Below are positions 1 to 36,297 of a stretch of 36,297 bases of DNA, piece by piece. The stretch's first letter is position 1. The number at the start of each line of letters is the position of its first letter. The notes below the pieces were generated by a model. It searched no databases and had not been told where the DNA came from. It saw only the letters and a list, made by a program, of their open reading frames with translations. The position numbers and the translations under genes are program-made. Origin of the DNA: a virus (taxonomy: Duplodnaviria; Caudoviricetes); the IMG/VR virus record IMGVR_UViG_3300014775_000700, positions 1 through 36,297 of that record, one strand, 5' to 3'.

Positions 1-1709
1 TGGTTAACTCGACCAACCAGTTCGTCTTTGTGACTGATGAGGAAAACATTTTTGTTTCTCTCACGTCCCATCTTTTTAAGAGCTGCTAGTGCATTTTCAA
101 CACCAGCAGTGTCCATACCTGAGTCGATCAACTCGTCAATGAACAACAAGTTAATACCTTGATACAAACTTTCCCAAACATCACGGAATGCCCAGCTCAT
201 ACCAAGTATGAGACGGTTACGTTCACCACGTGAAAGGTTATCAAAGTCTAAGTCTTGACCTAGTTGAGTAATCTCAACACTCAAATCATTTTGGAATGTA
301 ACCTGATGTGGTAATCCAAGTTTGTCTAAGTAGTAAGTCAGTCTATTGTTTAGATAAGATAGGTTTTGATCAATAATCTTTTTACGGATAAAACTATCTT
401 TGTTAGTTAACAACTTTAATAAAAACTCTTGATGTTCTTTCAACAAGTTAAGTTGATTGATTGGTTCCCAGTCTATTTCTTGTAGAGCCGTTTCTTTTAG
501 GTCGTTGATTTGTTCTTGATAAGGATCGTTTTCATTTTCTTTGTTGCTGTGTGCTTGACGTAAGTTGTCAACGTTGTTTCTGTGCTCATAGGCCTCTTTC
601 ATACTTTCATAGAAAGTATTAGGTCTACCGTTGATATGTCCTATGTCTTCTAGATCTTTCATCACTGCTTCTAGTTTATCTGCAACTTCCAGTTGATATG
701 CTAAAGAATCGTTAAGTTCTTTTTGTTTCTTTAACAATATTTCTTCTTTTTTGTCGTCGTGTAGTGCTTGTCCACACGTATAACACGTTGCTTCATCTAG
801 ATTTGAGATGTCTTTTTGTGCCTTTTTTACACTACTATCGGCCCGTAATAGTGCAGACTCTAGTGTGCTTTTCTCTTTGTTTAAGGCGGTTATTTTGTTA
901 TTAAGTTCTGTCCAGTTACTTAACTTTTCATGTGCTTCTAACTCTACATCAATATCAAGTTTTTCTAACTCTTCGATGCCTGCAGACAGCTTTTTTAGGT
1001 CATCTCTGCGTTTTGATTCCCAAGCACGTTGTCTACCAACAAGAGTTTCAATGCTTTGTTGTATTTTTTTGTTGCTAGTTTCGATAGCATTAATCTTTAG
1101 TGTTTCTTCTGTGATACTATCCTTAGTTGACCGTATTTGTTCTTTTAATCTTTCGGCTTTTTCAGTTAAGATAGTTATACCAAGCAGTTGTTCAATGATA
1201 GCTCGCTGGTCGTTTGCTCTCATACTAAGGAACGGCTCGGTGTAAGTGTTCAATGCAAGTATGTGTTTGAACATATCGTGACTCATACCCAGTAGATCTT
1301 GAATAGATTCTTGAGTTTTTCGACTATCACCTTGTGATTCGTCGATTTCGTCTTTTTGTTCATGGTCGTTTATGTAAAACTTGAGTACGTTAGGTGATCT
1401 TCCACGTTCAATGCGGTATTGGTTGCCGTGTTTTTCAAAGTTTAATGTAACTAACATGCCTTTGCTGTTAGTTTTATTAATCAAGTTGTTCTTTTTGATA
1501 TTTGTTAGTGCGTTACCAAACAATGCATACGAAAGTGCATTGATGATAGTGGTTTTACCAGTACCGTTACGTGATCCAGTGTCGTCACCACCTTGATCTA
1601 GGTTCTCACCTAACACAAGTGTTAGTTGTTCTTTGTTAAAGTCCACTGCTTGGGTAACATTACCCACACTCATAAAGTTCTTTACGGTTAAATCTTTTAT
1701 TTTAATCAT
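1..1709 (-). CDS. gp46: Recombination endonuclease ATPase subunit, Rad50/SbcC-like (T4 gp46 family); 3' end runs off the window
   Basis: Not in the ORF track. My translation from ATG at 1709 gives MIKIKDLTVKNFMSVGN, Walker A GEN...RNGTGKTT, zinc-hook CYTCG (~771-786), signature LSRGE, Walker B LLFIDELIDSGMD and H-loop LISH. The start overlaps the gp47 stop (ATGA). Confidence 0.95.
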   Translation of the reverse strand, partial: MIKIKDLTVKNFMSVGNVTQAVDFNKEQLTLVLGENLDQGGDDTGSRNGTGKTTIINALSYALFGNALTNIKKNNLINKTNSKGMLVTLNFEKHGNQYRIERGRSPNVLKFYINDHEQKDEIDESQGDSRKTQESIQDLLGMSHDMFKHILALNTYTEPFLSMRANDQRAIIEQLLGITILTEKAERLKEQIRSTKDSITEETLKINAIETSNKKIQQSIETLVGRQRAWESKRRDDLKKLSAGIEELEKLDIDVELEAHEKLSNWTELNNKITALNKEKSTLESALLRADSSVKKAQKDISNLDEATCYTCGQALHDDKKEEILLKKQKELNDSLAYQLEVADKLEAVMKDLEDIGHINGRPNTFYESMKEAYEHRNNVDNLRQAHSNKENENDPYQEQINDLKETALQEIDWEPINQLNLLKEHQEFLLKLLTNKDSFIRKKIIDQNLSYLNNRLTYYLDKLGLPHQVTFQNDLSVEITQLGQDLDFDNLSRGERNRLILGMSWAFRDVWESLYQGINLLFIDELIDSGMDTAGVENALAALKKMGRERNKNVFLISHKDELVGRVN

Positions 1710-2719
1710 GCTAGCTCGTTGTAAATGTCTAATAACAGCTTTTTATTAAAGGTTTCAGTGTCAATGGCTTGTATTTCTTTGCTTACAATCTGATCAACAC
1801 TTTCAAACTGTGTGATATCAAGTTCAGATGATATTTCTTCGAGGTGTTTTTGCGGAATCAGTGTAATCTCGCGGCATTGATACTGTTCCATGAACGTTTC
1901 TTTGATATACGTTGCTTCTTCAAAGCTAATATCAATGTCAAGGGTTACTCTCAAGTACATGTTTGGCTTGATAAGTGTATCTTTCTCATCAATCAACTGC
2001 GATAGTTTAACAGTACGGTACTTTGGGCACTCAGGCCAGTTAATGTATTCTGGTTCAGCATCATTCTCACGGTCCAGTATCATCATACCACGGTCATCGT
2101 CCCAAGCATCTGCATAGTTATGTGGGAAAGCATTACCAATATAGTGGATCTTACCTTGCTTTTGACGTTTGTGGAAGTGTCCACTAAACACATACTCTTG
2201 GTTCTTGAAGTGTTCACTCTTTAGTTCGCCGTGATCTGGCATCTGTACCATAGCATTCATGTAGAAACTAGGCAGTTCGAAGTGTCCAAACAAATACTTT
2301 GCTTGAATCTTCTCTATCCTACGCCATTCGTCGCCTACTAACCATGGAACCAGTGCTACATCTTCAATCACTTGTATCTCATCTACAACTGTAATACCTG
2401 GAATGTGCTTTGCCCATTCAGTACTCTTAACATCACGTTTGTCTTTGTAGTATAAGTCGTGGTTACCAGCAAACATATAGAAGTTTTCAAACGCTGCACC
2501 TAGCTTTTCTAATGCTCGTATGCCTGCGTCCATGGTTGTTAGGTTAAGACTGTTGCGATTATGATTCCAATCACCGCAAAATATTCCAGTCTCACAACCG
2601 TTTGCCTTGGCTGTGTTGATAAACCAGTCTACGAACTCTTCGCAGTCGTGATTGTGTACTTTGCTGTTGCCTTTCAGACCAAAGTGAATGTCTGTAAACA
2701 CTGCTGCTTTTTTAAACAA
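1706..2719 (-). CDS. gp47: Recombination endonuclease nuclease subunit, Mre11/SbcD-like metallophosphoesterase (T4 gp47 family)
   Basis: Motifs DIHFG, GDWNH, GNHD, GHFE, SGHFH. TTG start with GAGGT RBS 7 nt upstream. Adjacent to gp46. Confidence 0.95.
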   Translation of the reverse strand: MFKKAAVFTDIHFGLKGNSKVHNHDCEEFVDWFINTAKANGCETGIFCGDWNHNRNSLNLTTMDAGIRALEKLGAAFENFYMFAGNHDLYYKDKRDVKSTEWAKHIPGITVVDEIQVIEDVALVPWLVGDEWRRIEKIQAKYLFGHFELPSFYMNAMVQMPDHGELKSEHFKNQEYVFSGHFHKRQKQGKIHYIGNAFPHNYADAWDDDRGMMILDRENDAEPEYINWPECPKYRTVKLSQLIDEKDTLIKPNMYLRVTLDIDISFEEATYIKETFMEQYQCREITLIPQKHLEEISSELDITQFESVDQIVSKEIQAIDTETFNKKLLLDIYNELA

Positions 2720-2745
2720 ATGTATTACCTCATGTATAGACTTAT

Positions 2746-2774
2746 ACTGTAAACGGATTTTTGAAAGAAGTCAA
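2746..2774 (-). promoter_or_regulatory. Putative sigma70-type promoter for gp47-gp46
   Basis: Minus strand TTGACT (2774-2769), 17 bp spacer, TACAGT (2751-2746), in the gp55-gp47 intergenic gap. Confidence 0.6.
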
Positions 2775-2778
2775 GAGA

Positions 2779-3606
2779 TTATTTGTTTCTTTCTGCTTCT
2801 CGTTTTTGTGCTGCTTCCCACTCACCAGCATGTAGCCTTGTGTAGCTAGGAGCAAGATCGTTCATTTCTAGGATGTCATCTCTAATGTTTTGATTGCGTT
2901 TTTCTAGATTAATAACACGAACAAAGCTATTAGTAACAGCAGCGGTATAATAAGCAAAAGGATTGTTGGATTTACTTTCATCAAACTGTAGTCCTATCTG
3001 GGCTAGTTGTAGTATTGCTTGGCCTTTCATTTCGTCATTATAGGTATAACCACGAACATTACCTCTAGTAGCATAGCGATCAACAAGTTTAAGCCACATC
3101 ATAGCAAGTTTGTTTGTCGCTTTGCCGTGATCTTTTGAAAAATATCCATTTTCCATGCCACCTACCCAGTGACTTTTACCTATGCACACTAGATTATCAT
3201 TTTCGTCAAACTTATAATGTTGAAAAGGAGGAAAGTTTAGTTTAGTTTTTGTATCTGCGACTGTTTTTGGATTTTTCTTACGTCCTGGTTCTTCAGGAAT
3301 ATGATCAAATGTCATTATTCTAAAAATCAAGTCGGTTTTTTCTATAGTTCTATAATCAACTTCAAACTCGGCCATCTTAACTTTACGTCCACTGGCTTTT
3401 GCTTGTTCATATGCGTCAGTTGATTGCTTCTTTGCTTTGTTTCGTTTTGCTTCTGCTATTGTTCTTATGTTAATCTTATCAACAGAAGGCAAAATAATAT
3501 CATAGTTAGCATATTCTGGAGATACATAGCTACAAAAAGTACTTTTACTCTTGTGTATCTCTGCTAACATGTCTTTGTTGTTTAAATAATTTACTTTTCT
3601 AGCCAT
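2779..3606 (-). CDS. gp55: Late-transcription sigma factor (T4 gp55-like) with a large insertion
   Basis: N-terminal YLNNKDML and C-terminal RGYTYNDEM...FDESKSNNPFAYYT...SFVRVINLEKR match my recollection of gp55 motifs. The 55-47-46 gene order is T4-like. Confidence 0.85.
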   Translation of the reverse strand: MARKVNYLNNKDMLAEIHKSKSTFCSYVSPEYANYDIILPSVDKINIRTIAEAKRNKAKKQSTDAYEQAKASGRKVKMAEFEVDYRTIEKTDLIFRIMTFDHIPEEPGRKKNPKTVADTKTKLNFPPFQHYKFDENDNLVCIGKSHWVGGMENGYFSKDHGKATNKLAMMWLKLVDRYATRGNVRGYTYNDEMKGQAILQLAQIGLQFDESKSNNPFAYYTAAVTNSFVRVINLEKRNQNIRDDILEMNDLAPSYTRLHAGEWEAAQKREAERNK

Positions 3607-3629
3607 GTTTTACAGGGTCCTTTTTAAAC

Positions 3630-3658: not shown

Positions 3659-3665
3659 CTAAATA
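3658..3665 (+). promoter_or_regulatory. Putative T4-type late promoter (ACTAAATA)
   Basis: TAAATA core 17 nt before the first structural gene, followed by AGGAG RBS at 3672-3676. Confidence 0.6.
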
Positions 3666-3682: not shown

Positions 3683-4450
3683 ATGGCAGAAGGTTCCGAA
3701 TATTACAGCACATATGACTGGAGTGGCGACATTTCTCAAAGGCGTCTGGCAAACAGTGGGCTTCCGCCCGGTGCTGAACCTGTAAGTGCAGATGCAACTA
3801 CTGCAACTTTTACAAACAAGTTTGATAGAACTGGAAATGACTGGCGTGTTAAAATAAGTTTGCCTAACATAGGAACTTTCAAAAGCAGTCCTATGCTTAA
3901 ACCATTAAAAACAACCAACAACGCTGTAACCTTTCCTTTACAACCGACAATAACATTCAGTCACACAGCTGACTATGATGTACAATCTCCTGTACACAGT
4001 AACTATAGTTATCCTATTTATTCAAACTCAAGAATAGAAGATATTAATATTGTAGGAGAGTTTCCAGTTCAGAGTCCTAAGGACGGAACATATTGGGCAG
4101 CAGTAATACATTTTTTACGCAGTGCTACAAAAATGTTTTATGGCGATGGCAGCAACAAAGGAGGACCACCTCCGATTTGCCATCTAAGTGGATACGGAGA
4201 CTTTGTTTTAAATGATGTTCCTGTTGTGATTACAGCATTTAGTACAGATTTACCTAATAATGTAGATTATATTAGGAGCCCTATCTATGTACAAAACGAA
4301 GCAGGTATAGAAACTGAAAACTATACAATGGCTCCTACACTTAGCACAATAAGCGTAGTTGTAAAACCAATCTACAGCCGCAGTAAGATTGAAACATTCA
4401 ACCTTGACAAGTTTGTTAATGGTCAGTTAATAGACAAAGGATTCATCTAA
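3683..4450 (+). CDS. Putative baseplate tail-tube initiator/cap (gp48/gp54-like)
   Basis: Tube-fold-like pattern FPLQPTITFSH...GGPPPICHLSGYGDFVLNDVPVVITAFSTDLP. Lies directly before the LysM-like wedge and hub genes. Strong RBS. Confidence 0.55.
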   Translation: MAEGSEYYSTYDWSGDISQRRLANSGLPPGAEPVSADATTATFTNKFDRTGNDWRVKISLPNIGTFKSSPMLKPLKTTNNAVTFPLQPTITFSHTADYDVQSPVHSNYSYPIYSNSRIEDINIVGEFPVQSPKDGTYWAAVIHFLRSATKMFYGDGSNKGGPPPICHLSGYGDFVLNDVPVVITAFSTDLPNNVDYIRSPIYVQNEAGIETENYTMAPTLSTISVVVKPIYSRSKIETFNLDKFVNGQLIDKGFI

Positions 4451-4752
4451 TGGCAACTTATCCTAAAACCAGTCCTTATGCAACTACAAAAATATCAGAA
4501 TCAGGCGAGTTAGGTATATTTAAAATCAGACCTGTGCCTGCAAATGACGACGATATATTATATAAAATACAATCTCAGTATCTTTACAGACCTGATTTGT
4601 TAGCTTTTGATCTTTATGGAACAAGTAAACTATGGTGGGTGTTTTCGCAACGTAATATGGATGTACTAAAAGATCCAGTTTTTGATTTTAAACCGGGTAC
4701 AGAAATATATTTGCCAAAATCCTCATCATTAAAACGACAGCTAGGTATCTAA
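4450..4752 (+). CDS. gp53: Baseplate wedge subunit, LysM-like (T4 gp53 family)
   Basis: Motif YRPDLLAFDLYGTSKLWWVF...N...IYLP. TAATG overlap with the upstream gene. Confidence 0.75.
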   Translation: MATYPKTSPYATTKISESGELGIFKIRPVPANDDDILYKIQSQYLYRPDLLAFDLYGTSKLWWVFSQRNMDVLKDPVFDFKPGTEIYLPKSSSLKRQLGI

Positions 4753-7086
4753 ATGGCTATTAAAAAGAATGCATTACATCAGTTTGCTAGTTACAACTAT
4801 ATTTTTGAACTTTCTTGTCTAAGTTTTGACGAGATTGCAAAACCTGATGAAACATATCGTGCTTCTTCACCTCAAAATGTTATTTTCCGCAGCGGCGGCG
4901 GCGCAGAAAACAAAGTCACAACCTTATACGAAGATGCTATTGGGGCAAAACTGGAATATTATGTTGATGATGTTACTGTTGAAAGTTTAGTTGTACCAAA
5001 TAGCAAAACTAGAACAACAAATGCAACCCATATTGAGTTTACAGTAGTAGAACCGTACAGTATGGGTTTGTTTTTACAAACACTACAGCTTGCAGCAGTA
5101 AACTCTGGGCATGTAGGAAACTATATTAAAGCACCTTTTAATCTAAGTGTGCAGTTTGTAGGATACGACGATGACGGAGATCCGTTAGTAGTCGACGACG
5201 GAAGAAACTTACAAAGACATTTTCCTCTGTACATAACAAATGTTGAGTTTAATGTTACAGCCGGTGGGTGTACATATCGTGTTGAAGGTATTCCTTGGAA
5301 TGAACAGGCAGTACTTGACAGTGTTAATGAAGCAAAAACAGATATTAGCATTTCAGGATCAACTATTGTAGAAGCGTTACAAAGTGGCGAAAGAAGTCTT
5401 GCAACAGTTATTAATGGTAGATTTGAAGAACTTAGAAAAGCTAATCTAAACAAAGAAGCTGACGAACTTGTGATTAGTTTTCCAAAAGAGATAGCAAGCG
5501 GATTTGGCAATCCTAACAACGATGATGATACCGATCAAGGTGCTACAACTGACGGAACAAGCAGTAAAAAAGGTGGCGGCATATTTGGCAAAGTAGTTGC
5601 AGGTGCAGTTGGCGGTATTATTGGCGGTGCTTTAAGTGGTAATAGGAATATTGGTGAAGCAGCACTTGGAGGAGCTTTAGGTGGTCTTGGTCTCGGAGGA
5701 GGTGTTGGCGGCTTACTAGGTGGATTAGCAGGAGGATCCAGTATCGGAGGATTGCTTACAGCATTTAAAAACGGAGATGTTAATGCTTTGTTTCAAGGTA
5801 TAAGCGGATTTCTTGGAGCACAAGCACCTCAAAACTTTGAAGCATTTGTTAGTATGATCACTGGACAAGTTTTTACAAGAAGTAACATAGGAGATTCATT
5901 AACATCACGTGCTCAAGATCCAGATTCTCTCAATGATGTAGGTAATGGTGGATTTATTAGTTCATTTAATGATGGTGGTATTCCTCCTTTTCCTGAAACT
6001 GGACTAATATACGACAGAAATAGCAAAACTTACACTAGAGCTAAAGCGACAGTAAGCGATGATACACGAGTATGGCAGTTTCCAAGTGGTAGTAAAATAA
6101 CAAGAATGATAGAAAAAGTTATTTTAGACAGTAACTGGGCCAGAGAAATATTAGATAGAGCACCAAACGAAGACGGTATGGTTGATTGGTTTAGGATTGA
6201 ATGTGAAACCTATTTAAAACCAGGACTTGAAGTACAACAAAGCGGCGAAAGCGCCAAAGTTTATCATTATCGAGTAATAAAATATCAGGTACATAGCAGC
6301 ACATTACAAAATCCAAAGCAAGCACCGTCAAGTTATCAGTCTTTGTTTGACAATGCTGTAAAAGAATACAACTATATCTACACTGGTGAAAACAAAGATA
6401 TCATTGATTTTGACATACAACTTAACAGCAGTTACTTTGTTGCTAATCTTGCAGATGCAGGACAAAGTAATATTGATGCACAATACGACAATGCAGACAA
6501 TGTAACTGCAAAAGATCCAGAAATATTAACAGAAACAGAATCTGATGGTGTAATAAGTGCTACAGGATCATCAAGCACTACATCAGTTACAACTACTTCC
6601 TCAGCAGGCGGTGGCGGCGCAGGCCTAGATGGCAACAAACGTCGAGTAGCTCAGCTATTTCATGACGCAATAATAAACAGTAGTGTTGACTTGATACAAC
6701 TAGAGTTGGAAATCTTAGGAGATCCATACTTTATATTTGATAGCGGAATGGGTAACTATACTTCTTTTGCAGAAAGTCAAAACGAAACCGCAGAAGGTAG
6801 CATCGAAGTGCAAAGGAGTCAGTGTCATATCATTGTAAACTTTAGAACTCCAATAGATTACAACGAAGATACAGGAGGAATGCACTATCCTGAAGATACA
6901 ATACCAGTTGCTGCATTCAGTGGTTTGTACATGGTAACTACATTAGTAAACAGTTTTTCTGGTGGAAGATTCCAACAGAGACTTACATTAACAAGAAAAC
7001 GCAATCAAGAATCTGATACTACCGAAGACTTAACAAGTTCAGGAAATCCAAGATACGAAGATAACAGCGGAACAACATTGCCATAA
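4753..7086 (+). CDS. Putative baseplate hub protein (gp27/gp44-like) with a glycine-rich insertion
   Basis: Position between the gp53-like and spike genes. C-terminal LEILGDPYF...FSGLYMVTTLVNSFSGGRFQQRLTLTR is typical of hub proteins. Confidence 0.65.
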   Translation: MAIKKNALHQFASYNYIFELSCLSFDEIAKPDETYRASSPQNVIFRSGGGAENKVTTLYEDAIGAKLEYYVDDVTVESLVVPNSKTRTTNATHIEFTVVEPYSMGLFLQTLQLAAVNSGHVGNYIKAPFNLSVQFVGYDDDGDPLVVDDGRNLQRHFPLYITNVEFNVTAGGCTYRVEGIPWNEQAVLDSVNEAKTDISISGSTIVEALQSGERSLATVINGRFEELRKANLNKEADELVISFPKEIASGFGNPNNDDDTDQGATTDGTSSKKGGGIFGKVVAGAVGGIIGGALSGNRNIGEAALGGALGGLGLGGGVGGLLGGLAGGSSIGGLLTAFKNGDVNALFQGISGFLGAQAPQNFEAFVSMITGQVFTRSNIGDSLTSRAQDPDSLNDVGNGGFISSFNDGGIPPFPETGLIYDRNSKTYTRAKATVSDDTRVWQFPSGSKITRMIEKVILDSNWAREILDRAPNEDGMVDWFRIECETYLKPGLEVQQSGESAKVYHYRVIKYQVHSSTLQNPKQAPSSYQSLFDNAVKEYNYIYTGENKDIIDFDIQLNSSYFVANLADAGQSNIDAQYDNADNVTAKDPEILTETESDGVISATGSSSTTSVTTTSSAGGGGAGLDGNKRRVAQLFHDAIINSSVDLIQLELEILGDPYFIFDSGMGNYTSFAESQNETAEGSIEVQRSQCHIIVNFRTPIDYNEDTGGMHYPEDTIPVAAFSGLYMVTTLVNSFSGGRFQQRLTLTRKRNQESDTTEDLTSSGNPRYEDNSGTTLP

Positions 7087-7095
7087 GGATAAAGA

Positions 7096-8568
7096 ATGAC
7101 ACAAGTACCAGCAAATACAACAGAAGAAAAACGCAGTGTTGATACAGGACAAGAACAAGGCAGTTCTGGTCCTTTTGTTGCACGAGTTTTGAAACATGCT
7201 GATCCTCATTATCTTGGCGGATTAGAAGTACAGTTGTTAAAAGTCACTGAAGCAGGAAACTTCAATGAGACTTTAGGACAAACTGCTATTGTTTACTATG
7301 CAAGTCCATTTTATGGTGTTACACAACACGGTAATGTTGGCAAAAACGACGATTATGCAAATACTCAAAAAAGTTATGGTTGGTGGGCTGTTCCTCCTGA
7401 TCCAGGTAGTCTAGTTTTGGTTACATTTGCAGAAGGAAGTAGAGATTTTGGTTTTTGGTTTGCTTGTATTCCAGAAAAAGGCATGACATTTATGTTACCA
7501 GGTGGCCAACCTACTACACAACAGTTAAGTGGTCCTGTGCCTAGTGCATTAACAGGTAAAAAACTGCCTGCTGGTGAATACAACAAAGAAATAACCAAGC
7601 CACAAACCAACAATCCTATAAAATATAAACGTCCTGTCAACCTTGATTTTGTAAATCAACTTTTAGAACAAGGTTTAGCTGAAGATGATACTAGAGGAAC
7701 AACTACAAGTAGTGCGCAAAGAGAGTTTCCTAGTGCTGTTGTAGGTTTTAGTAGTCCCGGTCCTGTTGATAAACGTGGTGGCACACCTATGGCTAATATA
7801 GGTTTAAAAGAATCTAAAGCAACAATGCATGTTAGCCGTTTAGGTAGTAGCAGCATAGTTATAGATGACGGTGATGATAAACTTTTACGTAAAGGGTCAC
7901 CTTCGGATACACCTTACGAATACGTAAACAAAGAAGCAAACCAATCAGGCGGTGATGTTACTTTATTACACAACGAACTAATACGTTTACGAACACGCAC
8001 AGGTGCTCAAATATTGATGCACACAAGCGAGGATTTGATTTATATCAACAACAGCAAAGGAAGTTGTTGGATAGAAATGACCAGCAATGGAAAACTTGAT
8101 GTATATGCACAGGATAGTATTAGTTTTCACAGCGATAACGATATAAACTTCAAAGCAGAAAGAGATATCAACATACATGCTGCAAATAATATTAACTTTA
8201 CTTCTAACCAGAATACCTACATGAGTGCAGGTGCAAACTGGGAAGTAAAAGTAAATGCAGATGGAAAAATAACAACCGCAGGAAATGCAAGTATCAAAGC
8301 AGGCGCAGATGTAAAAGTTGCAGCTGGCGGTACAGGCAACTATAAATCTGGAGCAGATACCAAGATAACAGCTGGAGGAACAGCTTGGATTGATGGCGGT
8401 CCAAATGTAGAACTAAATGGCGGCGGTAGTGCAGCAGATGCAGACGAAGCAGCTCAAGCATCAATACCTGTGCGTATTCCACAACACGAGCCATGGGAAG
8501 GGCATGAAAATCTAAATCCGCCTGCTGTAACTCCTGAAAACACTCAGGCAAATCCAGAAGGAACATAA
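7096..8568 (+). CDS. gp5: Baseplate central spike (gp5/gpV/VgrG-like: OB-fold plus beta-helix, no lysozyme domain)
   Basis: N-terminal ARV...DPHYLGGLEV...PPDPGSLVLVTF (OB-fold-like). 8-residue-periodic beta-helix DINFKAER/DINIHAAN/NINFTSNQ. C-terminal HEPWEGH. Confidence 0.75.
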   Translation: MTQVPANTTEEKRSVDTGQEQGSSGPFVARVLKHADPHYLGGLEVQLLKVTEAGNFNETLGQTAIVYYASPFYGVTQHGNVGKNDDYANTQKSYGWWAVPPDPGSLVLVTFAEGSRDFGFWFACIPEKGMTFMLPGGQPTTQQLSGPVPSALTGKKLPAGEYNKEITKPQTNNPIKYKRPVNLDFVNQLLEQGLAEDDTRGTTTSSAQREFPSAVVGFSSPGPVDKRGGTPMANIGLKESKATMHVSRLGSSSIVIDDGDDKLLRKGSPSDTPYEYVNKEANQSGGDVTLLHNELIRLRTRTGAQILMHTSEDLIYINNSKGSCWIEMTSNGKLDVYAQDSISFHSDNDINFKAERDINIHAANNINFTSNQNTYMSAGANWEVKVNADGKITTAGNASIKAGADVKVAAGGTGNYKSGADTKITAGGTAWIDGGPNVELNGGGSAADADEAAQASIPVRIPQHEPWEGHENLNPPAVTPENTQANPEGT

Positions 8569-8580
8569 AGAGGGCATAAA

Positions 8581-10203: not shown

Positions 10204-10206
10204 ATA
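10199..10206 (+). promoter_or_regulatory. Putative late promoter (AATAAATA)
   Basis: Overlaps the upstream stop codon and ends 4 nt before the gp25 ATG. Confidence 0.5.
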
Positions 10207-10210
10207 CGTT

Positions 10211-10651
10211 ATGGCTACTAATGATCAACCACTTTATAAAAACATCACTATTACACAAGATTCCTATAGTGAACCAAACTATAGCAAACGCTATAGAGGA
10301 ATCAGCACGGTTAATCCTGAAGCCAATAGTTATAATCTATACGACTTTGAGTTGATCAAACAAGATATAATAAATCATTTCCATATACGTCAAGGCGAAA
10401 AACTAATGAATCCAACTTTTGGAACTATTATATGGGATATATTATTTGAACCTTTAACCGATGATATTAAAAATGCGATCATTAAAAATGTTACTGATAT
10501 TATTAACTACGATCCAAGGGTTAGAGTGCAAAAAGTTAATGTAGATGCTTATGAAAGTGGTATACAAATAGAAGCTACTCTTACATATTTGCCTTATAGT
10601 ATCAGTGAAACTATGCGTCTGACATTCGATCAAAATGCGGGATTGATTTAA
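10211..10651 (+). CDS. gp25: Baseplate wedge subunit gp25 (GPW/gp25 family)
   Basis: Motif IKQDIINHFHIRQGEKLMNPTFGTIIWDILFEP...YDPRVRV. Confidence 0.9.
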   Translation: MATNDQPLYKNITITQDSYSEPNYSKRYRGISTVNPEANSYNLYDFELIKQDIINHFHIRQGEKLMNPTFGTIIWDILFEPLTDDIKNAIIKNVTDIINYDPRVRVQKVNVDAYESGIQIEATLTYLPYSISETMRLTFDQNAGLI

Positions 10652-10671
10652 GTACGCACTTTATTAATCCA

Positions 10672-10679
10672 GATAAATA
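10672..10679 (+). promoter_or_regulatory. Putative late promoter (GATAAATA)
   Basis: Intergenic, upstream of a GAGGA RBS and the gp6 start. Confidence 0.65.
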
Positions 10680-10703
10680 TACTAAAGTGAGGATTGGTGC
10701 ATC

Positions 10704-28165: not shown

Positions 28166-28774
28166 ATGACAAAAACTGACGAACATAGTGGTGTACACAT
28201 AGTAGGACACATTAAAATATTTAACCCTGAAAACGGTCACGTTTATATTGATAAACGTAATGCCATTCATTACGAAAATATGAGTATAAGTCTAGCCGAA
28301 AGTTTGGGTAATGCCGGCGAAGGTTTTATATATGAAATGGCCTTTGGTAACGGAGGCACAAGCGTTGACCCAACAGGTATTATTACATACTTAACACCAA
28401 ACAGTACTGGTACAAATGCAAGTTTGTACAACGAAACCTATGCAAAAGTTGTTGATGATAATAGTGTTAACAACACAGATCCTACAAGAAACAAAATAGA
28501 AACTCGTCATATTAGTGGTACAAACTACACTGACATTATTGTAAGTTGTTTACTAGATTACGGTGAACCAGACGGACAAGATGCTTTTGATACAGCCAGC
28601 GACACAGACCAACTTTATGTTTTTGACGAGTTAGGCTTGAAAGGTTATACAACTGACGGTACCGAAAGACTGTTAACTCATGTTATTTTCCATCCAGTAC
28701 AAAAAGCACTAAACAGACTTATTCAAATAGATTATACTGTTAGAGTACAAAGCCTTAGCGGAGGGAATAGCTAA
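28166..28774 (+). CDS. Virion structural protein, probably baseplate (202 aa)
   Basis: Motifs GHIKI...NAIH, MAFGNGG, FDELGL and LLTHVIFHPVQKALNR...IDYTVR. Sits between baseplate and fibre genes. Confidence 0.65.
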   Translation: MTKTDEHSGVHIVGHIKIFNPENGHVYIDKRNAIHYENMSISLAESLGNAGEGFIYEMAFGNGGTSVDPTGIITYLTPNSTGTNASLYNETYAKVVDDNSVNNTDPTRNKIETRHISGTNYTDIIVSCLLDYGEPDGQDAFDTASDTDQLYVFDELGLKGYTTDGTERLLTHVIFHPVQKALNRLIQIDYTVRVQSLSGGNS

Positions 28775-30819
28775 TGGCCGAATATGAAATACCGTTTACA
28801 GACGTAACCAACAAAGGTACTATCACAGTACCAGATGGATCTCCTAATGTTAGCGATACAAGTCTAGCTCTTATAGGTGATCAACAAGAGAGATATGGTA
28901 TAAATCTAAACACAAACTTTTTACATTTGTTAGAAAACTTTGCAGATGTGAATCCGCCAGGTAATCCGGTAGAAGGACAGTTGTGGTACGATACAACAAG
29001 TGGTGTTGATCAACTAAAAATATATGACGGAACAAACTGGGTTGCAGCAGGCGGCCTAAAAAAAGGATCAACACAACCAGAAACCACTAACAGTGTTACA
29101 GGTGATCTTTGGGTTGATACAACTAATAATCAACTGTATCTTTACAGTGGAAGTGCATGGTTGTTAGTAGGCCCTAGCTATAGCGATGGCATTAAGACAG
29201 GTGCAATACCAGAAACTATTATTGATACAAACAACGTAAGTAGACTAGTTATTATAAACTACAGTAACAATGTTCCTGTGAGTATTGTAAGTAGCACTAC
29301 TTTTACGCCTAAAAGCACTATAGTAGGATTTAGCACAGTAAGTGCAGGTATAACTTTAAGTTCTAATATAAGCGGAAACAAAGCAATATTAAACGGTGAA
29401 GCAAAGTATGCAGAACGTTTAACAGCAAATCCAACTGATACAACTCCTATTGCAGGTACAATACTTGCTAGTGCATTTATGCGTAATGATCAGACTAGCT
29501 TAACAAGTTTTCCAATACAAATCAGAAATGATGGCGGTTTAGAAGTTGGCGGAACTCGTACACTTAGTTTGTTAGTAGAAGGCACAACTGGTGTTATAGA
29601 TCATGCACAAACAGGTAGTAGTTTAGATTTGCGTGTAAACAATGCAGGCACAAGTAGTGTTGCAGTTAGAGTAAAAAGTGATACCACTGTTGGTATTAAC
29701 AATCTAAATCCTACTGAAAGTTTAGATGTTATAGGTAATGTTAAAGCAAGCGGTAACCTTGACTTAGGCGGTGAACTTGATGTTACACAAAATACAAATA
29801 TTGCAGGAAATCTAGTTGTAGGCGGTACTGGTACATACACTAATACTTTAAATGTACAAGACATTGTACCAACACTTGATAACGATTATGCTATTGGTAG
29901 TAACCCATCATCGGGCGGAAAAGCATTTTCGGATATATGGGCTTACAACTTTAGATTAGCACCAGGGGGTTTCTTACACGGAAACGTAACAGGAAATGTG
30001 TCTGGCAGTGCAGGTAGTGCAGCTAAAATAACAAGTCCTACAACATTTGCAATGAGTGGCGAAGTTAGTGCAACAAGTTTTATATTTGACGGTCAAACCG
30101 GTGGAAGTACAAAAACTTTTACAACAGTGATTGATCCTACATTTGTTAGTTCTAAACCTAGCATAACAACAACAACTCCTTCAACTGTGCAGACTACTGA
30201 TGAAGTATTGCTGAACAGGGGTGGTACACTTTATAAAGCTACACAAACTGAACTTATTAATAACATTCCAACTAACCCTGTTGGAACAGTTGTGATGTTC
30301 GCTGGTCCAGTTATTCCAAGCGGTTGGTTCTTATGCGATGGCAGTGAAATAAGTTTATCAACGTATAGCACACTTGCTACTGCATTAGGATACGATGCAA
30401 CAGATAACACAACTTGGTATTATGGTACTCCTAGTGATCCTAACACAGTGTTTGTTATTCCTGATTACAGAGGAAGAATGCCATTAGGTGTTGGATTACC
30501 GGGCGGAGCAACAAGGGTAACAGATAGTGCAGCAGGAACATTAGGTGGCTTAGGCGGTGCAGAAGAACAAACAATAAATGTTGATAACTTACCTGAACAC
30601 CAACACGACTTAAAAAGTAGTTCAGGAGACCAGTTTTATGCAACTGCTACTGCCTCTTATACAGGCACAGGTGTTACAACTGGTAACGGAGATACAGCAG
30701 GTACAGGTAGTGTATTTGAATACAGCGGAACCATATTAGGTGGTACTACAAATGATCCTTTAACTACAACTCCACCTTTTGCTGCTATTAACTTTATTAT
30801 ATATCACGGAGTACTTTAA
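28774..30819 (+). CDS. Tail fibre or baseplate fibre protein with C-terminal phage tail-collar domain
   Basis: Collar motif PVGTVVMFAG...PSGWFLCDGS...IPDYRGRMPLG, then NLPEHQH and PPFAAINFII. N-terminal module shared with the next two genes. Confidence 0.8.
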   Translation: MAEYEIPFTDVTNKGTITVPDGSPNVSDTSLALIGDQQERYGINLNTNFLHLLENFADVNPPGNPVEGQLWYDTTSGVDQLKIYDGTNWVAAGGLKKGSTQPETTNSVTGDLWVDTTNNQLYLYSGSAWLLVGPSYSDGIKTGAIPETIIDTNNVSRLVIINYSNNVPVSIVSSTTFTPKSTIVGFSTVSAGITLSSNISGNKAILNGEAKYAERLTANPTDTTPIAGTILASAFMRNDQTSLTSFPIQIRNDGGLEVGGTRTLSLLVEGTTGVIDHAQTGSSLDLRVNNAGTSSVAVRVKSDTTVGINNLNPTESLDVIGNVKASGNLDLGGELDVTQNTNIAGNLVVGGTGTYTNTLNVQDIVPTLDNDYAIGSNPSSGGKAFSDIWAYNFRLAPGGFLHGNVTGNVSGSAGSAAKITSPTTFAMSGEVSATSFIFDGQTGGSTKTFTTVIDPTFVSSKPSITTTTPSTVQTTDEVLLNRGGTLYKATQTELINNIPTNPVGTVVMFAGPVIPSGWFLCDGSEISLSTYSTLATALGYDATDNTTWYYGTPSDPNTVFVIPDYRGRMPLGVGLPGGATRVTDSAAGTLGGLGGAEEQTINVDNLPEHQHDLKSSSGDQFYATATASYTGTGVTTGNGDTAGTGSVFEYSGTILGGTTNDPLTTTPPFAAINFIIYHGVL

Positions 30820-32744
30820 TGAGCTATAGGTTAAACAAAACAGACGGATCACTATTAGTTGAACTTGTTGATGGTCGTATTGATGATACTTCCACTAACC
30901 TAGTGCTTGTAGGTAAAAACTACCAAGGGTTTGGCGAGTTTCTTAATGAAAACTTTATTAAGATTTTAGAAAACTTTAGTAATAGTGCAGCACCAAGTCA
31001 GCCAATAAGAGGACAACTTTGGTATGACACAGGCGAAGCAAGACTAAAAATATTTAATGGTGTACAGTTTGTAAGCACAGACAGTACAATATTTGCATCA
31101 ACTAGACCTACAACACTAGTTGACGGCGATATTTGGATTGATGGCACAAACAACCAAATGTATTTTTACGATGGGTTAGATTTAAGTTTAGTAGGTCCTG
31201 CCTACACTAAAACACAAGGTAAATCAGGATACGAAGTTTCTACAGTAAAAGATACAACAGGTCAAAACAAAACTATTGTTAAGTTTTATGTAGGAGCAAG
31301 TTTAATAGGTATACACAGTAAAGCAGCATTTACTCCGTTCCCAGCAATCAATGGATTTGATAGTTTAGATGTTGGTTTTAACTTAAATGCAGCTTACAGT
31401 GGTTACAAATGGATTGGTGAAGCATTAAGTGCAAGTACACTGTCAGACGGCGTTAACACATATGAACCACAAAGTGATTTTTTAACAGCAAGAGATGGTA
31501 TCGGTAATAACACTACTACTTCGGGCATTGTTATTAGCAACAATGCAGGTATACGTATTGGTACACAAACCGACTTTGATATTGCTATTGGTGCCTCTGC
31601 TACAACTTTAAGGACAAACGTTAATCATGCTGATCTAAGAATCAGAATGAAAAACACTTCTAATAGTGCCTATCTTGCAGACAACTATTTTTATGATATT
31701 ATGTATTTTGATGCTAGCACAGAACGAGTAGGTATCAAAAACAATGCACCGACTTACGATTTAGATGTAACAGGTGATGTACGTATAACAGGTGATTTGC
31801 GTGTAGAAGGCGATTCTACATATTTAGATATTCAAACTTTAAGAGTACAGGATAAAACTATTGAGCTAGGAGTTGCCGAAGATAGTACAATATTAGACAA
31901 TGCAGCATTAGACGGCGCAGGTATTGTCATTCCTAGTTTAGATGGAAGTAAAGATTGGATTTTTGACGATGCTACAAGCAGTTGGAGATCAAACCTAAAT
32001 ATTAACCTGTTAGAAAGAACAGGCGTTTACAAGATCGATAACGCTGATGTATTAAGTGTAGATACTTTAGGATCAAGTGTTATAAACAGTAACTTACAAA
32101 CACTAGGTACACTACAAGAACTTTCTATTGATAGTCTAAACTTAAATGATAGTACAATAACTGCAACAGCAGATTTAGTATTGAAAGTGAACAAGATTGT
32201 TCCTGTAGCAACGTTTCAAGGTCCTGGTACAGATACAGTTCTTGTTAATGGATTAACTACAGCAACAAGTGCAAAAGCAGTAGCGGAACTAGGTGGTACA
32301 GAAAATGACGATGATGTAGCAGCAAGTAAAGAATATGTAGATAAAGAAATCAAATGGATGAGTAGGGCGTTTAATCTAAATGTAAACGGCCTAGGATCTG
32401 GACCTACATTGCAAAGTAATGTTGGCACAATAATAGAAACAATATATCCTGCTGCTGATTATACCGTTGGTACAATCATTAATGTTATAGCAGAGGAAAT
32501 AACAGCAACAACACCTGCTGTTACACTATCTATACGAGATAGCACTGCACCTGATACAGGAGAAGTATTAGTTCAAACAAAAACACCTGTAGACAGTGCT
32601 GGTACTCAAAACGTTAGTGTTGTAAGTGATGTAGCAATAGCCAACGATATACCAAGTGGATCGGTGACACTGAGTGTTACAAGGACACTTATGACATACA
32701 AACAAAACGGTACATGGACCTATCAGTCAAGTACTGCCCTATAA
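30819..32744 (+). CDS. Tail fibre-like virion protein (paralogous N-terminal module)
   Basis: Motifs LVGKNYQGFGEFLNENFIKILENF...GQLWYD, RVGIKNNAPTYDLDVTG and AASKEYVD. Confidence 0.7.
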   Translation: MSYRLNKTDGSLLVELVDGRIDDTSTNLVLVGKNYQGFGEFLNENFIKILENFSNSAAPSQPIRGQLWYDTGEARLKIFNGVQFVSTDSTIFASTRPTTLVDGDIWIDGTNNQMYFYDGLDLSLVGPAYTKTQGKSGYEVSTVKDTTGQNKTIVKFYVGASLIGIHSKAAFTPFPAINGFDSLDVGFNLNAAYSGYKWIGEALSASTLSDGVNTYEPQSDFLTARDGIGNNTTTSGIVISNNAGIRIGTQTDFDIAIGASATTLRTNVNHADLRIRMKNTSNSAYLADNYFYDIMYFDASTERVGIKNNAPTYDLDVTGDVRITGDLRVEGDSTYLDIQTLRVQDKTIELGVAEDSTILDNAALDGAGIVIPSLDGSKDWIFDDATSSWRSNLNINLLERTGVYKIDNADVLSVDTLGSSVINSNLQTLGTLQELSIDSLNLNDSTITATADLVLKVNKIVPVATFQGPGTDTVLVNGLTTATSAKAVAELGGTENDDDVAASKEYVDKEIKWMSRAFNLNVNGLGSGPTLQSNVGTIIETIYPAADYTVGTIINVIAEEITATTPAVTLSIRDSTAPDTGEVLVQTKTPVDSAGTQNVSVVSDVAIANDIPSGSVTLSVTRTLMTYKQNGTWTYQSSTAL

Positions 32745-32745
32745 C

Positions 32746-32753
32746 GATAAATA
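32746..32753 (+). promoter_or_regulatory. Putative late promoter (GATAAATA)
   Basis: Intergenic, upstream of a GAGGAG RBS and the ATG at 32775. Confidence 0.65.
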
Positions 32754-32774
32754 GTAATAACACGAGGAGCAACA

Positions 32775-34280
32775 ATGGCATATGTTATTAACAGATTTAA
32801 TGGTCAACAACTTGTATCAGTAGAAGATGGTACAGTTGACCAAACCACTGATATTAAACTGGTAGGTAAAAACTATAGCGGATACGGTGAAGCACAAAAC
32901 GAAAACTTTATTCATATGTTGGAACACTTTGCAGGAACATCTGCACCAACAAAAGCATTAAGCGGACAAGTATGGTTTGACAGTGCAACAAATAAACTGA
33001 AGTTTTATACCGGTGACACATGGAAAAATGCAGGCGGTGCAGAAGTCAACTCTACTGAACCAGCAGGGTTAAATGAAGGTGATCTTTGGTATAGCACTAC
33101 AAGCAATCAGTTGTTTGCTAAAACTAATACAGGCGAGTTTATTTTAGTTGGTCCTCAAGCAGCAGGTGACGGCAGTACTCAAATGTTAAGTACAAGTGTA
33201 CTAGACGCTGGATCAGTAGAAAGAAATATCATTGTTGCTCTAATCAATGACAATCCTCAGTTTATTATCAGTACTGTTGAGTTTACATTAAACACAACAC
33301 AGCCAGCAGGTACAGTTAACCTAACAGGATTTAGCTTAATCAAAAAAGGCATAACCCTGTTGAACACAAGTACAAGTGGTATTACAACAGATGCAGGTGA
33401 CACAGGAGAACCTGTTATATGGGGTACTGCAAGTGATGCTCTTAGATTAGGCGGTGTTTTAGCAAGTGATTATCTAACAAGTTCTAGTGGTGCTTTTACT
33501 GATGTTGTGACGTTTGTTGATGCAGGCTTCCGTGTAGGTAATAGTAACGATTTACATGTAAAGATTGTAGACGGTAATGTAGGACAAATAACAAACGAAG
33601 TAGGCGATGAAATAAAACTAGGTACAAAACTTGCTAGTGCAGGCAGTGCTGATGTATTATTAAGATTACGTAATACAACAACAGACAAAGGATTGTTCCC
33701 TGCAAGCGATAATGTTTATGCTTTAGGTAGTAGTTCACTGAAGTTTTCAAATGTAGTTGCAACTACATTTACAGGTACAGCAACTCAAGCAACTGCACTT
33801 TACACAGGTAGCACTTATGTTCAAGGTAGAACCACTGCTACTGCAAATACAGTTGCAGTAAGAGATTCAAGCGGTAACATAACTGCAAATGAGTTTAATG
33901 GAACAGCTACAAAAGCACGTTATGCTGACCTTGCTGAAAAGTATACTACAGACAAAGAATATCCAGTAGGTACTGCTATGGCAGTATCAAATGCAAGTGC
34001 AAGTGCTGAAACAGCAAGTGCAAAAAGTTCTGATATTTGTATAGGTGTAATAAGTGAAAAACCTGCATACTTAATGAATGCTGAAATAGATGGTCAAGCT
34101 ATTGCACTTAAAGGTCGTGTACCTGTAAGAGTTAAAGAACCAGTTTCAAAAGGTCAAGCAATATACGCATGGGAAGATGGTGTTTGCACAACTACAGCAA
34201 CTCGTGCGTTAGTTGGTATTGCACTTGAAACAAATGAAAATGCTGAAGAAAAATTAGTTGAGTGTGTTTTAAAAGTATAA
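32775..34280 (+). CDS. Tail fibre-like protein with putative C-terminal intramolecular chaperone (peptidase G2-like) domain
   Basis: Shared N-terminal module LVGKNYSGYGEAQNENFIHMLEHF. C-terminal YADLAEKY...IGVISEKPAYLMN...ALKGRVPVRV. Confidence 0.7.
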   Translation: MAYVINRFNGQQLVSVEDGTVDQTTDIKLVGKNYSGYGEAQNENFIHMLEHFAGTSAPTKALSGQVWFDSATNKLKFYTGDTWKNAGGAEVNSTEPAGLNEGDLWYSTTSNQLFAKTNTGEFILVGPQAAGDGSTQMLSTSVLDAGSVERNIIVALINDNPQFIISTVEFTLNTTQPAGTVNLTGFSLIKKGITLLNTSTSGITTDAGDTGEPVIWGTASDALRLGGVLASDYLTSSSGAFTDVVTFVDAGFRVGNSNDLHVKIVDGNVGQITNEVGDEIKLGTKLASAGSADVLLRLRNTTTDKGLFPASDNVYALGSSSLKFSNVVATTFTGTATQATALYTGSTYVQGRTTATANTVAVRDSSGNITANEFNGTATKARYADLAEKYTTDKEYPVGTAMAVSNASASAETASAKSSDICIGVISEKPAYLMNAEIDGQAIALKGRVPVRVKEPVSKGQAIYAWEDGVCTTTATRALVGIALETNENAEEKLVECVLKV

Positions 34281-34303
34281 GTATGTAAAAGTAGGAAAAC
34301 ATA

Positions 34304-35197
34304 ATGGTAAACCAGATTATTTCAGCAGCAAGGTACAACAACTTACAGGGTAGAATAGCAGCAATATTAGGACCAGGATCAGGCGATAAAGGTTACAACC
34401 AGACTGTTGCTAGTAGTACTGTGCCTGTTAGTGAAACAGTTCAAGCATTGCATATGAATAATCTACATACTGATTTTGTAAATGCTCGTACACACCAAAC
34501 AGGTGCTATACCTGTAAGTATTTTTACAGTTTCGTCATCAGGTGAAATCACAGAAGCTTTACATGCTGCATACGAAGCATTAATAAATGATGTAGAAACT
34601 GATAGATTTTTAGTAGATGCTAGTCAAGCGGAACCTAGTAGTGCAGGTGTAAACAGCACACGTACTACAGATTGGGGTGGTCCGTCTTCTGCACCACAAG
34701 CAGTTACGCACGAGTTCAAAGCAACATGGCCTACTGCTAATGCACGTAGAGGATTTTTTAACGCAGGTGGAGAGATACGCTTTAGTGCAAACCTAAATCC
34801 AAGTATTTCTAGCGGCGATGATTATTTAAAAACAAAAAACTGGGCAGATATGCTTACAGCAATAGGTGTGGTCACATTTAACTATACCCAAACAAGTGTT
34901 AGTGGATCTGGTACCGGCAGTGCTATAGGTAACTTAGATTTAACAAGTACATATCAAACAATATACACAAAAACAGGAAGTGCTGTTTATACAGATAATG
35001 AATATACTATTCAGGCAAAAGAACTTAACACAAGAGAAATACAGTTTTTGATCACATTCCAAGACGATGCTAACGGCAGCGGAGGTGCTGATGAAACTGT
35101 TAAAGGAACACTTACAAGTACTATAGTACAATATAGAGCAGACGGACCTTATGTAGACACACCTGCTCCTGGTTATACATTAGTATCTGCATTATAA
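34304..35197 (+). CDS. Virion structural protein (297 aa), paralogue of the next gene
   Basis: AGGA RBS. Motifs ISAARYNNL, STRTTDWGG, FFNAGGEIRFSA and YTDNEYTI. Confidence 0.7.
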   Translation: MVNQIISAARYNNLQGRIAAILGPGSGDKGYNQTVASSTVPVSETVQALHMNNLHTDFVNARTHQTGAIPVSIFTVSSSGEITEALHAAYEALINDVETDRFLVDASQAEPSSAGVNSTRTTDWGGPSSAPQAVTHEFKATWPTANARRGFFNAGGEIRFSANLNPSISSGDDYLKTKNWADMLTAIGVVTFNYTQTSVSGSGTGSAIGNLDLTSTYQTIYTKTGSAVYTDNEYTIQAKELNTREIQFLITFQDDANGSGGADETVKGTLTSTIVQYRADGPYVDTPAPGYTLVSAL

Positions 35198-35198
35198 C

Positions 35199-35232
35199 TT
35201 GACAAAAACAAAAACTCTAGTTATAATAAATA
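35199..35232 (+). promoter_or_regulatory. Perfect sigma70 promoter overlapping a putative late promoter
   Basis: TTGACA (35199-35204), 17 bp spacer, TATAAT (35222-35227), overlapping AATAAATA (35225-35232). Confidence 0.75.
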
Positions 35233-35254
35233 CTAATATAAAAAAGGAATAAGT

Positions 35255-36297
35255 ATGGCTGCATTAGATCCTATTTCAGCTTTAGAATATAACAACATAA
35301 GACTAAGTATCGCTCAACAAGTTGGCGATTTTAGTGTTTGGACTAGCCATGGCATAACAACATCTACAACCACTAGTGGATATGGCAGAAGTTTTAGTAG
35401 TGGTCTTGTTGTAGGCGGAAACGATCCTGCTGTTAGTGATACTTGTACAGAAGAACAATATTTTGATTTATACTTAGATTTACAAGCAGCCCATGTACAT
35501 CAGTATGGCACATTAAATGGAGCATTAGACGAAACAGAGTTTCAAGGAAAGTTAAGTTTTCCAGATCCGGCTGTGTCGTCAAGAGACACTATTGCATTCC
35601 AACAAGTTACAGATTTAAATACTGTAGCATCCGCAGTCACTTCATTTAATCATGCAAGTACTGATTTTCCTAGTGCTAACTTTACAACTGACCTTTTAAG
35701 AACAAGCGGAGCAGTTTCTGTTTCTAGTACACGTTCTAGTAGTTGGGGTGGATCATCAGGACCTGCAAGTATCAATCACCAAGTTACAGTTGATTTTGGT
35801 ACACATAACTCCTTTCTATATTGGTTAGCAGCAGGCGGCGAAATACGTTTTGACGCAAGTTTATCAGGCGGTACTAGTGGTACTGCAAATACCAAGGACT
35901 GGGATTGGGCTCGTATCCTAGCAGCAATGGGTACAATACGTTTTGGAAGAGTAGCGCAAAGTACTTGGAGGTGTGAAGCTATTAGTCCAGGCACTGGTAC
36001 TGGTTATAGTAGTGCAAGTTTAAGCACTAGTAGCCCAGGTACATTAATATTTGAAAAACAAGGCGGCGGTGTTACAGGGGGTGCTACAGGACAAGTTCCA
36101 GTAACGCAAATCTATGACGACAACTACTATAGAATATTTGCTTGGACAAACACCACATTCAGTGCTGCTACACAGTTGATTTTTAATATCATATTCTTAG
36201 ACGGTGATACAGGTACAGGCGGCCAAGTAAGTCCAGATCCTGGCGAGTTTGGTACGCCGATTGACGAAGCGGTAACAGGTACTGTTGTAAGTAATGT
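35255..36297 (+). CDS. Virion structural protein, paralogue of 34304..35197; truncated at the window end
   Basis: Not in the ORF track. My translation gives MAALDPISALEYNNIR...STRSSSWGG...WLAAGGEIRFDASL...YDDNYYRI, open to the end. AAGGA RBS upstream. Confidence 0.85.
   Translation, partial: MAALDPISALEYNNIRLSIAQQVGDFSVWTSHGITTSTTTSGYGRSFSSGLVVGGNDPAVSDTCTEEQYFDLYLDLQAAHVHQYGTLNGALDETEFQGKLSFPDPAVSSRDTIAFQQVTDLNTVASAVTSFNHASTDFPSANFTTDLLRTSGAVSVSSTRSSSWGGSSGPASINHQVTVDFGTHNSFLYWLAAGGEIRFDASLSGGTSGTANTKDWDWARILAAMGTIRFGRVAQSTWRCEAISPGTGTGYSSASLSTSSPGTLIFEKQGGGVTGGATGQVPVTQIYDDNYYRIFAWTNTTFSAATQLIFNIIFLDGDTGTGGQVSPDPGEFGTPIDEAVTGTVVSN

Follow-up and report, generated by a model that had tools for sequence, protein, structure and literature searches.

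The palindrome AATT has been almost completely purged from the DNA of an uncultured bacteriophage, IMG/VR virus record IMGVR_UViG_3300014775_000700, which we analysed over the 36,297 bases available (hereafter, the window). To judge from its genes, the source is a jumbo myophage of the PA5oct/GAP32 type and the window is part of its structural region, about one-tenth of a genome estimated at ~360 kb. In relatives of this phage, depletion of AATT accompanies a cassette of two overlapping genes, one encoding a small nuclease-like protein and the other a methylase of the Dam class. We propose that the gap in the window probably reflects self-avoidance, in which the phage has removed from its own genome the site of an AATT nuclease that it would itself encode.

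Results

Removal of AATT by synonymous codon choice

Only two copies of AATT remain in the window, at 3588-3591 and 34252-34255. At its base composition (64% A+T), 376 would be expected, and a maximal-order Markov model predicts 232 (observed/expected ratio (O/E) 0.009, z -15; the next most depleted tetramer has a z of -4.8). We also shuffled codons over the 35,952 coding bases of the 17 genes for 200 rounds, preserving amino acids and codon usage; the expectation was 332.6 ± 10.8 (minimum 305), giving an O/E of 0.006. Thus, the word is under-represented after correction for short words as well as for codons, the pattern that defines restriction-site avoidance. The initial annotation, made by eye, had reported the same two copies, within TAATTT and AAATTA, where hundreds were expected, and had described TTAA, TATA, ATAT and GATC as common and the stretch 16381-16500 as free of AATT. 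Exact counts agree on every point, the four words occurring 278, 266, 325 and 113 times, respectively. The annotation had also named two outcomes that would speak against avoidance, namely an O/E near 1 after a codon-preserving shuffle and an equal depletion of other AT-only tetramers. Neither was observed, the remaining 15 AT-only tetramers having Markov O/E values of 0.82–1.47.

The avoidance is visible in the codons, in a context-specific manner and on both strands. Before a codon of the form TTN, Glu is written GAA 0 times and GAG 40 times (elsewhere, 569 and 41), Lys is written AAA once and AAG 37 times (elsewhere, 488 and 68), and Gln is written CAA 0 times and CAG 35 times (elsewhere, 351 and 63). 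Asn preceding T is AAT once and AAC 107 times (elsewhere, 447 and 311), while Ile following an A-ending codon is ATT 0, ATC 43 and ATA 174 times (elsewhere, 352, 81 and 151). These counts confirm the rewording of Glu-, Lys-, Gln- and Asn-Phe and of Glu- and Lys-Ile to which the initial annotation had drawn attention. The dipeptides themselves are not depleted (observed/expected: Glu-Phe, 31/28.9; Lys-Phe, 29/26.4; Gln-Phe, 25/19.9; Asn-Phe, 34/38.5). When gp46, gp47 and gp55 were compared with those of five AATT-normal relatives, which have 23–33 AATT sites each, 19–22 of the sites had been lost synonymously in the window, 4–10 lay on changed residues and 0–1 were retained. AATT has therefore been removed from the window mainly by synonymous codon choice.

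These results leave next to no probability for a compositional bias, or for an artefact of assembly or library preparation, as the source of the gap. The sole point in its favour is a general under-use of palindromes in the family; it is refuted by the codon-preserving shuffles, none of which gave fewer than 305 copies, and neither the context-specific rewording of both strands nor the normal AATT content of 71 of the 80 relatives, which are similar in composition, agrees with it.

A second, weaker gap in the window concerns CGCG (1 copy vs 10.6–14 expected), which is low family-wide (228 vs 581 expected, O/E 0.39, pooled over 80 relatives). One reading that would connect the two words is that the host methylates AATT and that a methyl-dependent nuclease, either a host type IV enzyme or one encoded by a phage, endangers the methylated sites. 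Some marine Acidimicrobiia are reported to methylate both AATT and CGCG (PMC8919816), the two words that are low here. We nevertheless regard this reading as very improbable: CGCG is low across the family, including its AATT-normal members; methylation of AATT by the phage itself would be at odds with a methyl-dependent nuclease; and the host seems to be of another kind. The complete relative G071 (357,559 bases in IMG/VR) carries AlgH-like and IscA genes as well as curli genes (curlin repeat, CsgG and CsgF; L374:5082-10144, a region that also encodes heme oxygenase and a ferredoxin-dependent bilin reductase), and this gene content suggests a Gram-negative host.

Relative to codon shuffles, TCGA (24 vs 58) and GGATG/CATCC (12 vs 26) are also low in the window. 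TGC-N6-GCA is missing from both strands (0 vs 19.9), probably as a consequence of the reading frame. Nothing was found that would compel retention of the residual AATT at 3588-3591.

A nuclease-like and methylase cassette in AATT-poor relatives

The initial annotation had proposed that relatives be examined for the same gap. Among 80 loci (not dereplicated) identified by their gp55 genes, 71 have an AATT O/E of at least 0.75 and 9 an O/E below 0.4, with none in between. The nearest relative, L001 (91% identity in gp55 and 80% in DNA), has 3 copies vs 55 expected (O/E 0.05).

No restriction or methylase gene was found among the genes of the window. The gp47/SbcD-like subunit was ruled out as the AATT nuclease, being a core recombination gene, as was a SegE-type GIY-YIG gene that lies beside gp46, since AATT-poor and AATT-normal relatives hardly differ in its N-terminal part. 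With the family's ligase as an anchor, three AATT-poor loci were reached. The record of one of them, G102, has in its early region a gene for a 168-amino acid (aa) protein that overlaps the gene for a 320-aa methylase of the PF02086 family. Scans for the nuclease-like protein yielded 12 viral loci and at least 80 metagenomic loci (42 of 64 database parts). Within the jumbo family, the cassette occupies a fixed slot, after the genes for IF-1 and a SprT-like protein and before a conserved 230-aa gene, which enabled us to compare contigs that span this slot (34 loci, 24 after dereplication). The AATT O/E was 0.06–0.49 in the 8 dereplicated carriers, all of which have the overlapping pair, and 0.81–1.05 in the 16 non-carriers, with no overlap between the two groups. 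The depletion extends throughout the carrier records (O/E 0.29 in G102, 0.32 in G166 and 0.21 in G167). It is also found when nuclease carriers from all phages are taken together: in the 41 dereplicated carriers of at least 2.5 kb (of 67), the median AATT O/E was 0.45, and 37 were below 0.8. Because AATT depletion accompanies the cassette in this way (8 of 8 carriers vs 0 of 16 non-carriers in the family), a phage-borne nuclease is favoured as its cause.

Carrier G167 shares 99% DNA identity over 6.5–9 kb with AATT-poor G103 and G104, whose polymerase is 98% identical to that of another AATT-poor locus and 84–88% identical to those of GTAC-, CATG- and AGCT-free relatives. By these identities, carriers are placed near the window's lineage, without a physical link to it.

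A search of 24 of the 64 parts of GTDB revealed no cellular copy of the pair. The sole close methylase match (60%) is L714 (JBMSJH010000239.1), a 2,951-base contig of an Aquirufa metagenome-assembled genome (MAG), which also encodes the nuclease and a family-type ligase and has 5 copies of AATT vs 15 expected; it is probably a binned phage fragment, and might alternatively be taken as a weak hint at the host. The other 79 GTDB methylase loci are at most 34% identical and lack such a nuclease. Searches of whole records with Pfam models returned nothing: the EcoRI model matched none of 50 records in each of three sets and none of eight cultured cyanophages, an uninformative outcome as one set included the carrier G102; PF02086 gave no match over the cut-off in 80 records, among which there was no carrier; and PF01555 gave none over the cut-off in sets of 5, 5 and 50 records.

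The slot of AATT-normal relatives often holds another pair, in which a 330–480-aa protein (with weak DUF6551 matches in two) precedes a small HNH nuclease in three cases (L617:10767-12385, L618:11639-13548 and L627:10482-11887) and a 134-aa protein in place of HNH in L622:11455-12964. This pair may be a different modifier-plus-nuclease cassette. In the large phage contig L689 (10441-14339), what looks by eye like a helicase-like pair and two methylase-like genes follows an SprT-like gene and resembles a larger restriction-modification cluster.

Predicted active-site and recognition residues of the two proteins

The methylase of the carriers matches PF02086 above the cut-off (E 1e-21), has an invariant DPPY motif, and finds its nearest structures in DpnM (2DPM, E 1.5e-37) and EcoDam (E 1e-22) by profile comparison, which together identify it as a D12/Dam-class N6-adenine methylase. 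In EcoDam, R124 reads the G of the fourth base pair, and the R124A variant accepts GATT, and K9 contributes to recognition of the first pair (PMC4417163). The R124 column holds Gln in all 29 members of the cassette methylase, and the K9 column holds Met, Ile, Val or Thr in 27 and a gap in 2, so that the guanine contacts of GATC-specific Dam enzymes are lacking. Given that both guanine-reading residues are replaced, the target is predicted to be other than GATC, and AATT would be consistent with it. DpnM, EcoDam and T4Dam (alpha group) belong to the same class; it is from EcoDam that the cassette methylase differs at these residues.

The type II enzymes MluCI and Tsp509I cut AATT, and EcoRI cuts GAATTC. 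Alignment of 97 sequences of the nuclease-like family revealed the invariant columns D67, E82, K84, Q86, G90, N91, A92 and R95, which can be aligned by eye with D91, E111, K113, Q115 and the E144/R145 segment of EcoRI; to the eye, the order and spacing of the D...ExK elements and of the adenine-reading segment agree. The E144/R145 segment of EcoRI reads the inner adenines, and R200 reads the outer G (PMC3806743); no counterpart of R200 is evident in the 168-aa protein. Two of 18 homologues, both distant, gave weak matches to the Pfam EcoRI model (PF02963), at profile positions 108-156, with E 0.017 (14.6 bits) and 0.15 (11.5 bits) at a cut-off of 22 bits. The likeness to EcoRI is weak, at the level of motifs seen by eye, and we do not assign the protein to the EcoRI family, whose Pfam model has 257 positions compared with 168 aa here; the segment between the ExK and recognition motifs is short in the phage protein.

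In partial avoiders, the bases that flank residual AATT are the same as in AATT-normal relatives. These ordinary flanks indicate that the target is the tetramer and rule out a longer one such as RAATTY.

Other purged palindromes in the family

Other words are purged in other relatives. Among the 80 gp55 loci, an O/E of 0.1 or less was found for AGCT in 8, GTAC in 3, CATG in 2 and TGCA in 1, and similar tallies were obtained near the DNA polymerase, helicase and ligase genes, for example GTAC at 11 of 80 polymerase loci and CTAG at 8 of 80 helicase loci. G052 has no CATG over 72 kb (209 expected), and G109 (L511-L517) has neither AGCT nor CTAG over 140 kb. In a quick gp55 tree, many branches of which are weakly supported, lineages with different purged words are intermingled; the window and L001 adjoin GTAC- and CATG-free lineages, with the other AATT-poor loci elsewhere. 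Complete purges of palindromes other than AATT (AGCT with CTAG, CATG, GTAC and GCGC) occur in G109, G052, G001, G057-G059 and G107/G112, and no responsible gene was found in them. AGCT and CTAG, which are reverse arrangements of the same letters, are often lost jointly. G003 (L190-L192 vs L087) lacks CATG in its first 60 kb (168 expected) and has 8 copies vs 41 expected in the gp46-gp55 part, possibly because the record is recombinant or chimeric.

No cassette was found in the AGCT-, CTAG-, CATG- and GTAC-purged relatives, few of whose contigs reach the early region. Since some AGCT-poor contigs span the slot without a cassette, the gaps of these relatives may be host-driven.

G073 (L488:15401-17227) encodes a 245-aa protein without family matches (113 homologues) and an N4/N6 methylase directly before the DNA ligase. 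It has 26 copies of GTWAC (GTAAC/GTTAC) vs 79 expected, with GTCAC/GTGAC normal (75 vs 71). This gene pair is a candidate GTWAC restriction pair and fits the pattern of cassette and purge.

A cluster behind the DNA polymerase gene (L190:2878-11009 and L171:11887-16787) encodes FolE, a QueE-like radical SAM protein, a YhhQ/Vut_1 transporter and conserved proteins of ~500 aa and 350–390 aa. It is possibly a 7-deazaguanine pathway, in which no DpdA was demonstrated. Protection of G-containing sites by such a pathway was rejected as an explanation, as it cannot account for the AGCT, GTAC or CATG purges in relatives.

Discussion

That the loss of AATT reflects selection by a sequence-specific nuclease, as the initial annotation had proposed, is well supported. 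As to the source of the nuclease, the annotation had offered a host system and a phage enzyme as alternatives, and the association described above favours the latter. We infer that the unsequenced early region of this phage carries the cassette of a small nuclease and a Dam-class methylase, AATT being the site that the one is predicted to cut and the other to methylate. The nuclease would be made early and would cut unmethylated AATT in the host chromosome, shutting down the host and freeing nucleotides; it may also cut co-infecting phages. The methylase would protect the phage DNA while lagging behind its rapid replication, such that each remaining AATT would pose a small, repeated risk and selection would remove these sites singly, by synonymous changes. 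The annotation's version of a phage enzyme, in which absence of the site is what spares the phage, is incomplete, because every family carrier seen also has the methylase. Relatives purged of AGCT, GTAC, CATG or CTAG would, by the same token, have carried other cassettes. A wider proposal, to which we give somewhat less than an even chance, is that members of this aquatic jumbo phage family attack host DNA or rival phages with interchangeable four-base restriction cassettes, each lineage recoding its genes at hundreds to thousands of codons so as to lose the site of the weapon it carries at the time (AATT here; AGCT, GTAC, CATG, CTAG, GCGC and GTWAC in relatives).

Several observations weigh against self-avoidance. 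The cassette lies outside the window, no contig joins the two, and the slot in G071 is ~170–185 kb from gp55. The family carriers mostly form one clade, with two or three outliers, in a tree of the gene that flanks the slot, and their nucleases are 93–100% identical; the 8-vs-16 split therefore represents far fewer independent events than its p-value of 1e-6 implies. These carriers are less purged (O/E 0.06–0.49) than the window (0.01), and 8 of the 41 carriers, in other phages, are barely depleted (0.72–1.07). PF02963 matched neither the jumbo-family member nor 16 of the 18 homologues, and neither the nuclease protein nor its profile had a match in the PDB. Finally, the AGCT-poor contigs L468, L630, L637 and L645 span the slot without a cassette, and a reading of the open reading frames along 140 kb of the AGCT/CTAG-free G109 disclosed none.

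The stronger purge of the window could be explained if the phage had kept the nuclease and lost the methylase, making absence of the site its sole protection, given that all family carriers have the methylase. This seems quite improbable to us. Near-zero AATT also occurs together with the methylase (observed/expected: L543, 5/87; L553, 0/25; L528, 3/78; L529, 1/46), six carriers without an adjacent methylase match have O/E values of 0.32–0.84, and two AATT sites persist in the window.

The main alternative, a host AATT system of type II, like MluCI or Tsp509I, from which the phage escaped by purging the site, is unlikely in our estimation, with the phage methylase then serving as counter-defence and the nuclease being a passenger or absent from this genome. 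Virulent phages are known to have nearly eliminated orthodox type II sites (bias <0.1 in 3.9% of site-genome pairs; PMC6286503), AATT methylation has been reported in marine bacteria, namely three Acidimicrobiia MAGs (PMC8919816), and the lack of a phage gene for the other purged palindromes fits purging driven by hosts. A host system does not, however, predict that all 8 family carriers should have a conserved nuclease-like gene next to the methylase, nor that the loss of AATT should track this gene in unrelated phages, and the absence of the pair from the cellular genomes searched (24 of 64 parts of GTDB) also argues against it. As for the Acidimicrobiia, the curli and other genes of the family point to a Gram-negative host instead.

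Self-avoidance differs from what has been described for restriction-site avoidance in virulent double-stranded DNA phages (Rusinov et al. 2018, PMC6286503). The near-elimination of a short palindrome is shared; that study treats host-encoded systems, and AATT does not appear in its main text, whereas here the depletion follows a gene pair of the phage family itself. In chloroviruses, restriction-modification is likewise virus-encoded, with adjacent nuclease and methylase genes and sites of 2–4 bp, and is believed to degrade host DNA early (PMC7019647). Chloroviruses are algal viruses with virion-packaged enzymes of known activity, while the present cassette belongs to bacteriophages, has a predicted activity, and comes with a genome purged of the site. 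Our searches of the open-access literature disclosed no description of an AATT nuclease-methylase pair carried by phages, nor of self-avoidance in this jumbo family. The present analysis adds a test of cassette against depletion within the family and the observation that the purged word switches among its members.

When a phage genome lacks a restriction site, the gap is usually attributed to host defence and serves as a clue to the host. If the window was purged because of the phage's own enzyme, such inference would fail for phages of this kind, and lytic phages would be employing restriction systems as weapons, in the way supposed for chloroviruses. The family would then be a source of very small four-base cutters and of Dam-class methylases with altered targets, both open to testing. 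If the cassettes are interchangeable, site avoidance would record the arsenal of the phage rather than the defence of the host, and the specificities of new nucleases could be predicted from the words that are missing.

Gene content of the window

The features of the window are listed in Table 1. Its long gp55, the gp46/47 genes adjoining the baseplate module and the giant virion protein are those of PA5oct/GAP32-type phages. The closest cultured matches for its gp55, gp47 and baseplate wedge protein, at 35–50% identity, are in PA5oct/MIJ3/Paride, Atu_ph07, SCTP-2 and GAP32/RaK2; unlike these jumbo myophages, the window sits in an uncultured clade of IMG/VR contigs with 77–91% gp55 identity, of which no cultured member was found. 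No tRNA gene was found in the window. The 297-aa protein at 34304, used as a query, retrieved two relatives at 52% identity and no extension of the contig.

Table 1 Features of the window and of its two residual AATT sites
Feature	Position	Strand	Details
Window	1..36297		64% A+T; 17 genes; 35,952 coding bases; complete IMG/VR record available
gp46/SbcC-like recombination ATPase	3..1709	-	Truncated by contig end; named by position after gp47 and ATPase motifs
gp47/SbcD-like nuclease subunit	1706..2719	-	phrog_100, E 9e-69
gp55 late sigma factor	2779..3606	-	phrog_12791, E 7e-76; 48–49% identity to PA5oct/MIJ3/Paride
Residual AATT 1	3588..3591		TAATTT; first codons of gp55 gene (minus strand); abuts TAAATA at 3583-3588
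TAAATA, likely late-promoter core	3660..3665	+	Just 5' of gene at 3683
Baseplate module	3683..14168	+	Virion protein, wedge subunits, hub/lysozyme protein, 540-aa protein, 1154-aa wedge protein (phrog_10646)
4657-aa virion structural protein	14171..28144	+	phrog_10938; 14 kb, zero AATT
Tail, collar and fibre-like genes	28166..36295	+	Final gene truncated by contig end
Residual AATT 2	34252..34255		AAATTA; Lys(AAA)-Leu(TTA) junction near end of tail-fibre-like gene

The hexamer TAAATA lies 10–30 bases upstream of 6 of the 14 plus-strand gene starts examined, including those of the genes at 10211, 10704, 28166, 32775 and 35255; the copies at 3660, 10201, 10674, 28142, 32748 and 35227 each precede a structural gene. 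The gp55 sigma factor probably recognises it as the late promoter. Within coding DNA, TAAATA is rarer, with 20 copies vs 55 expected.

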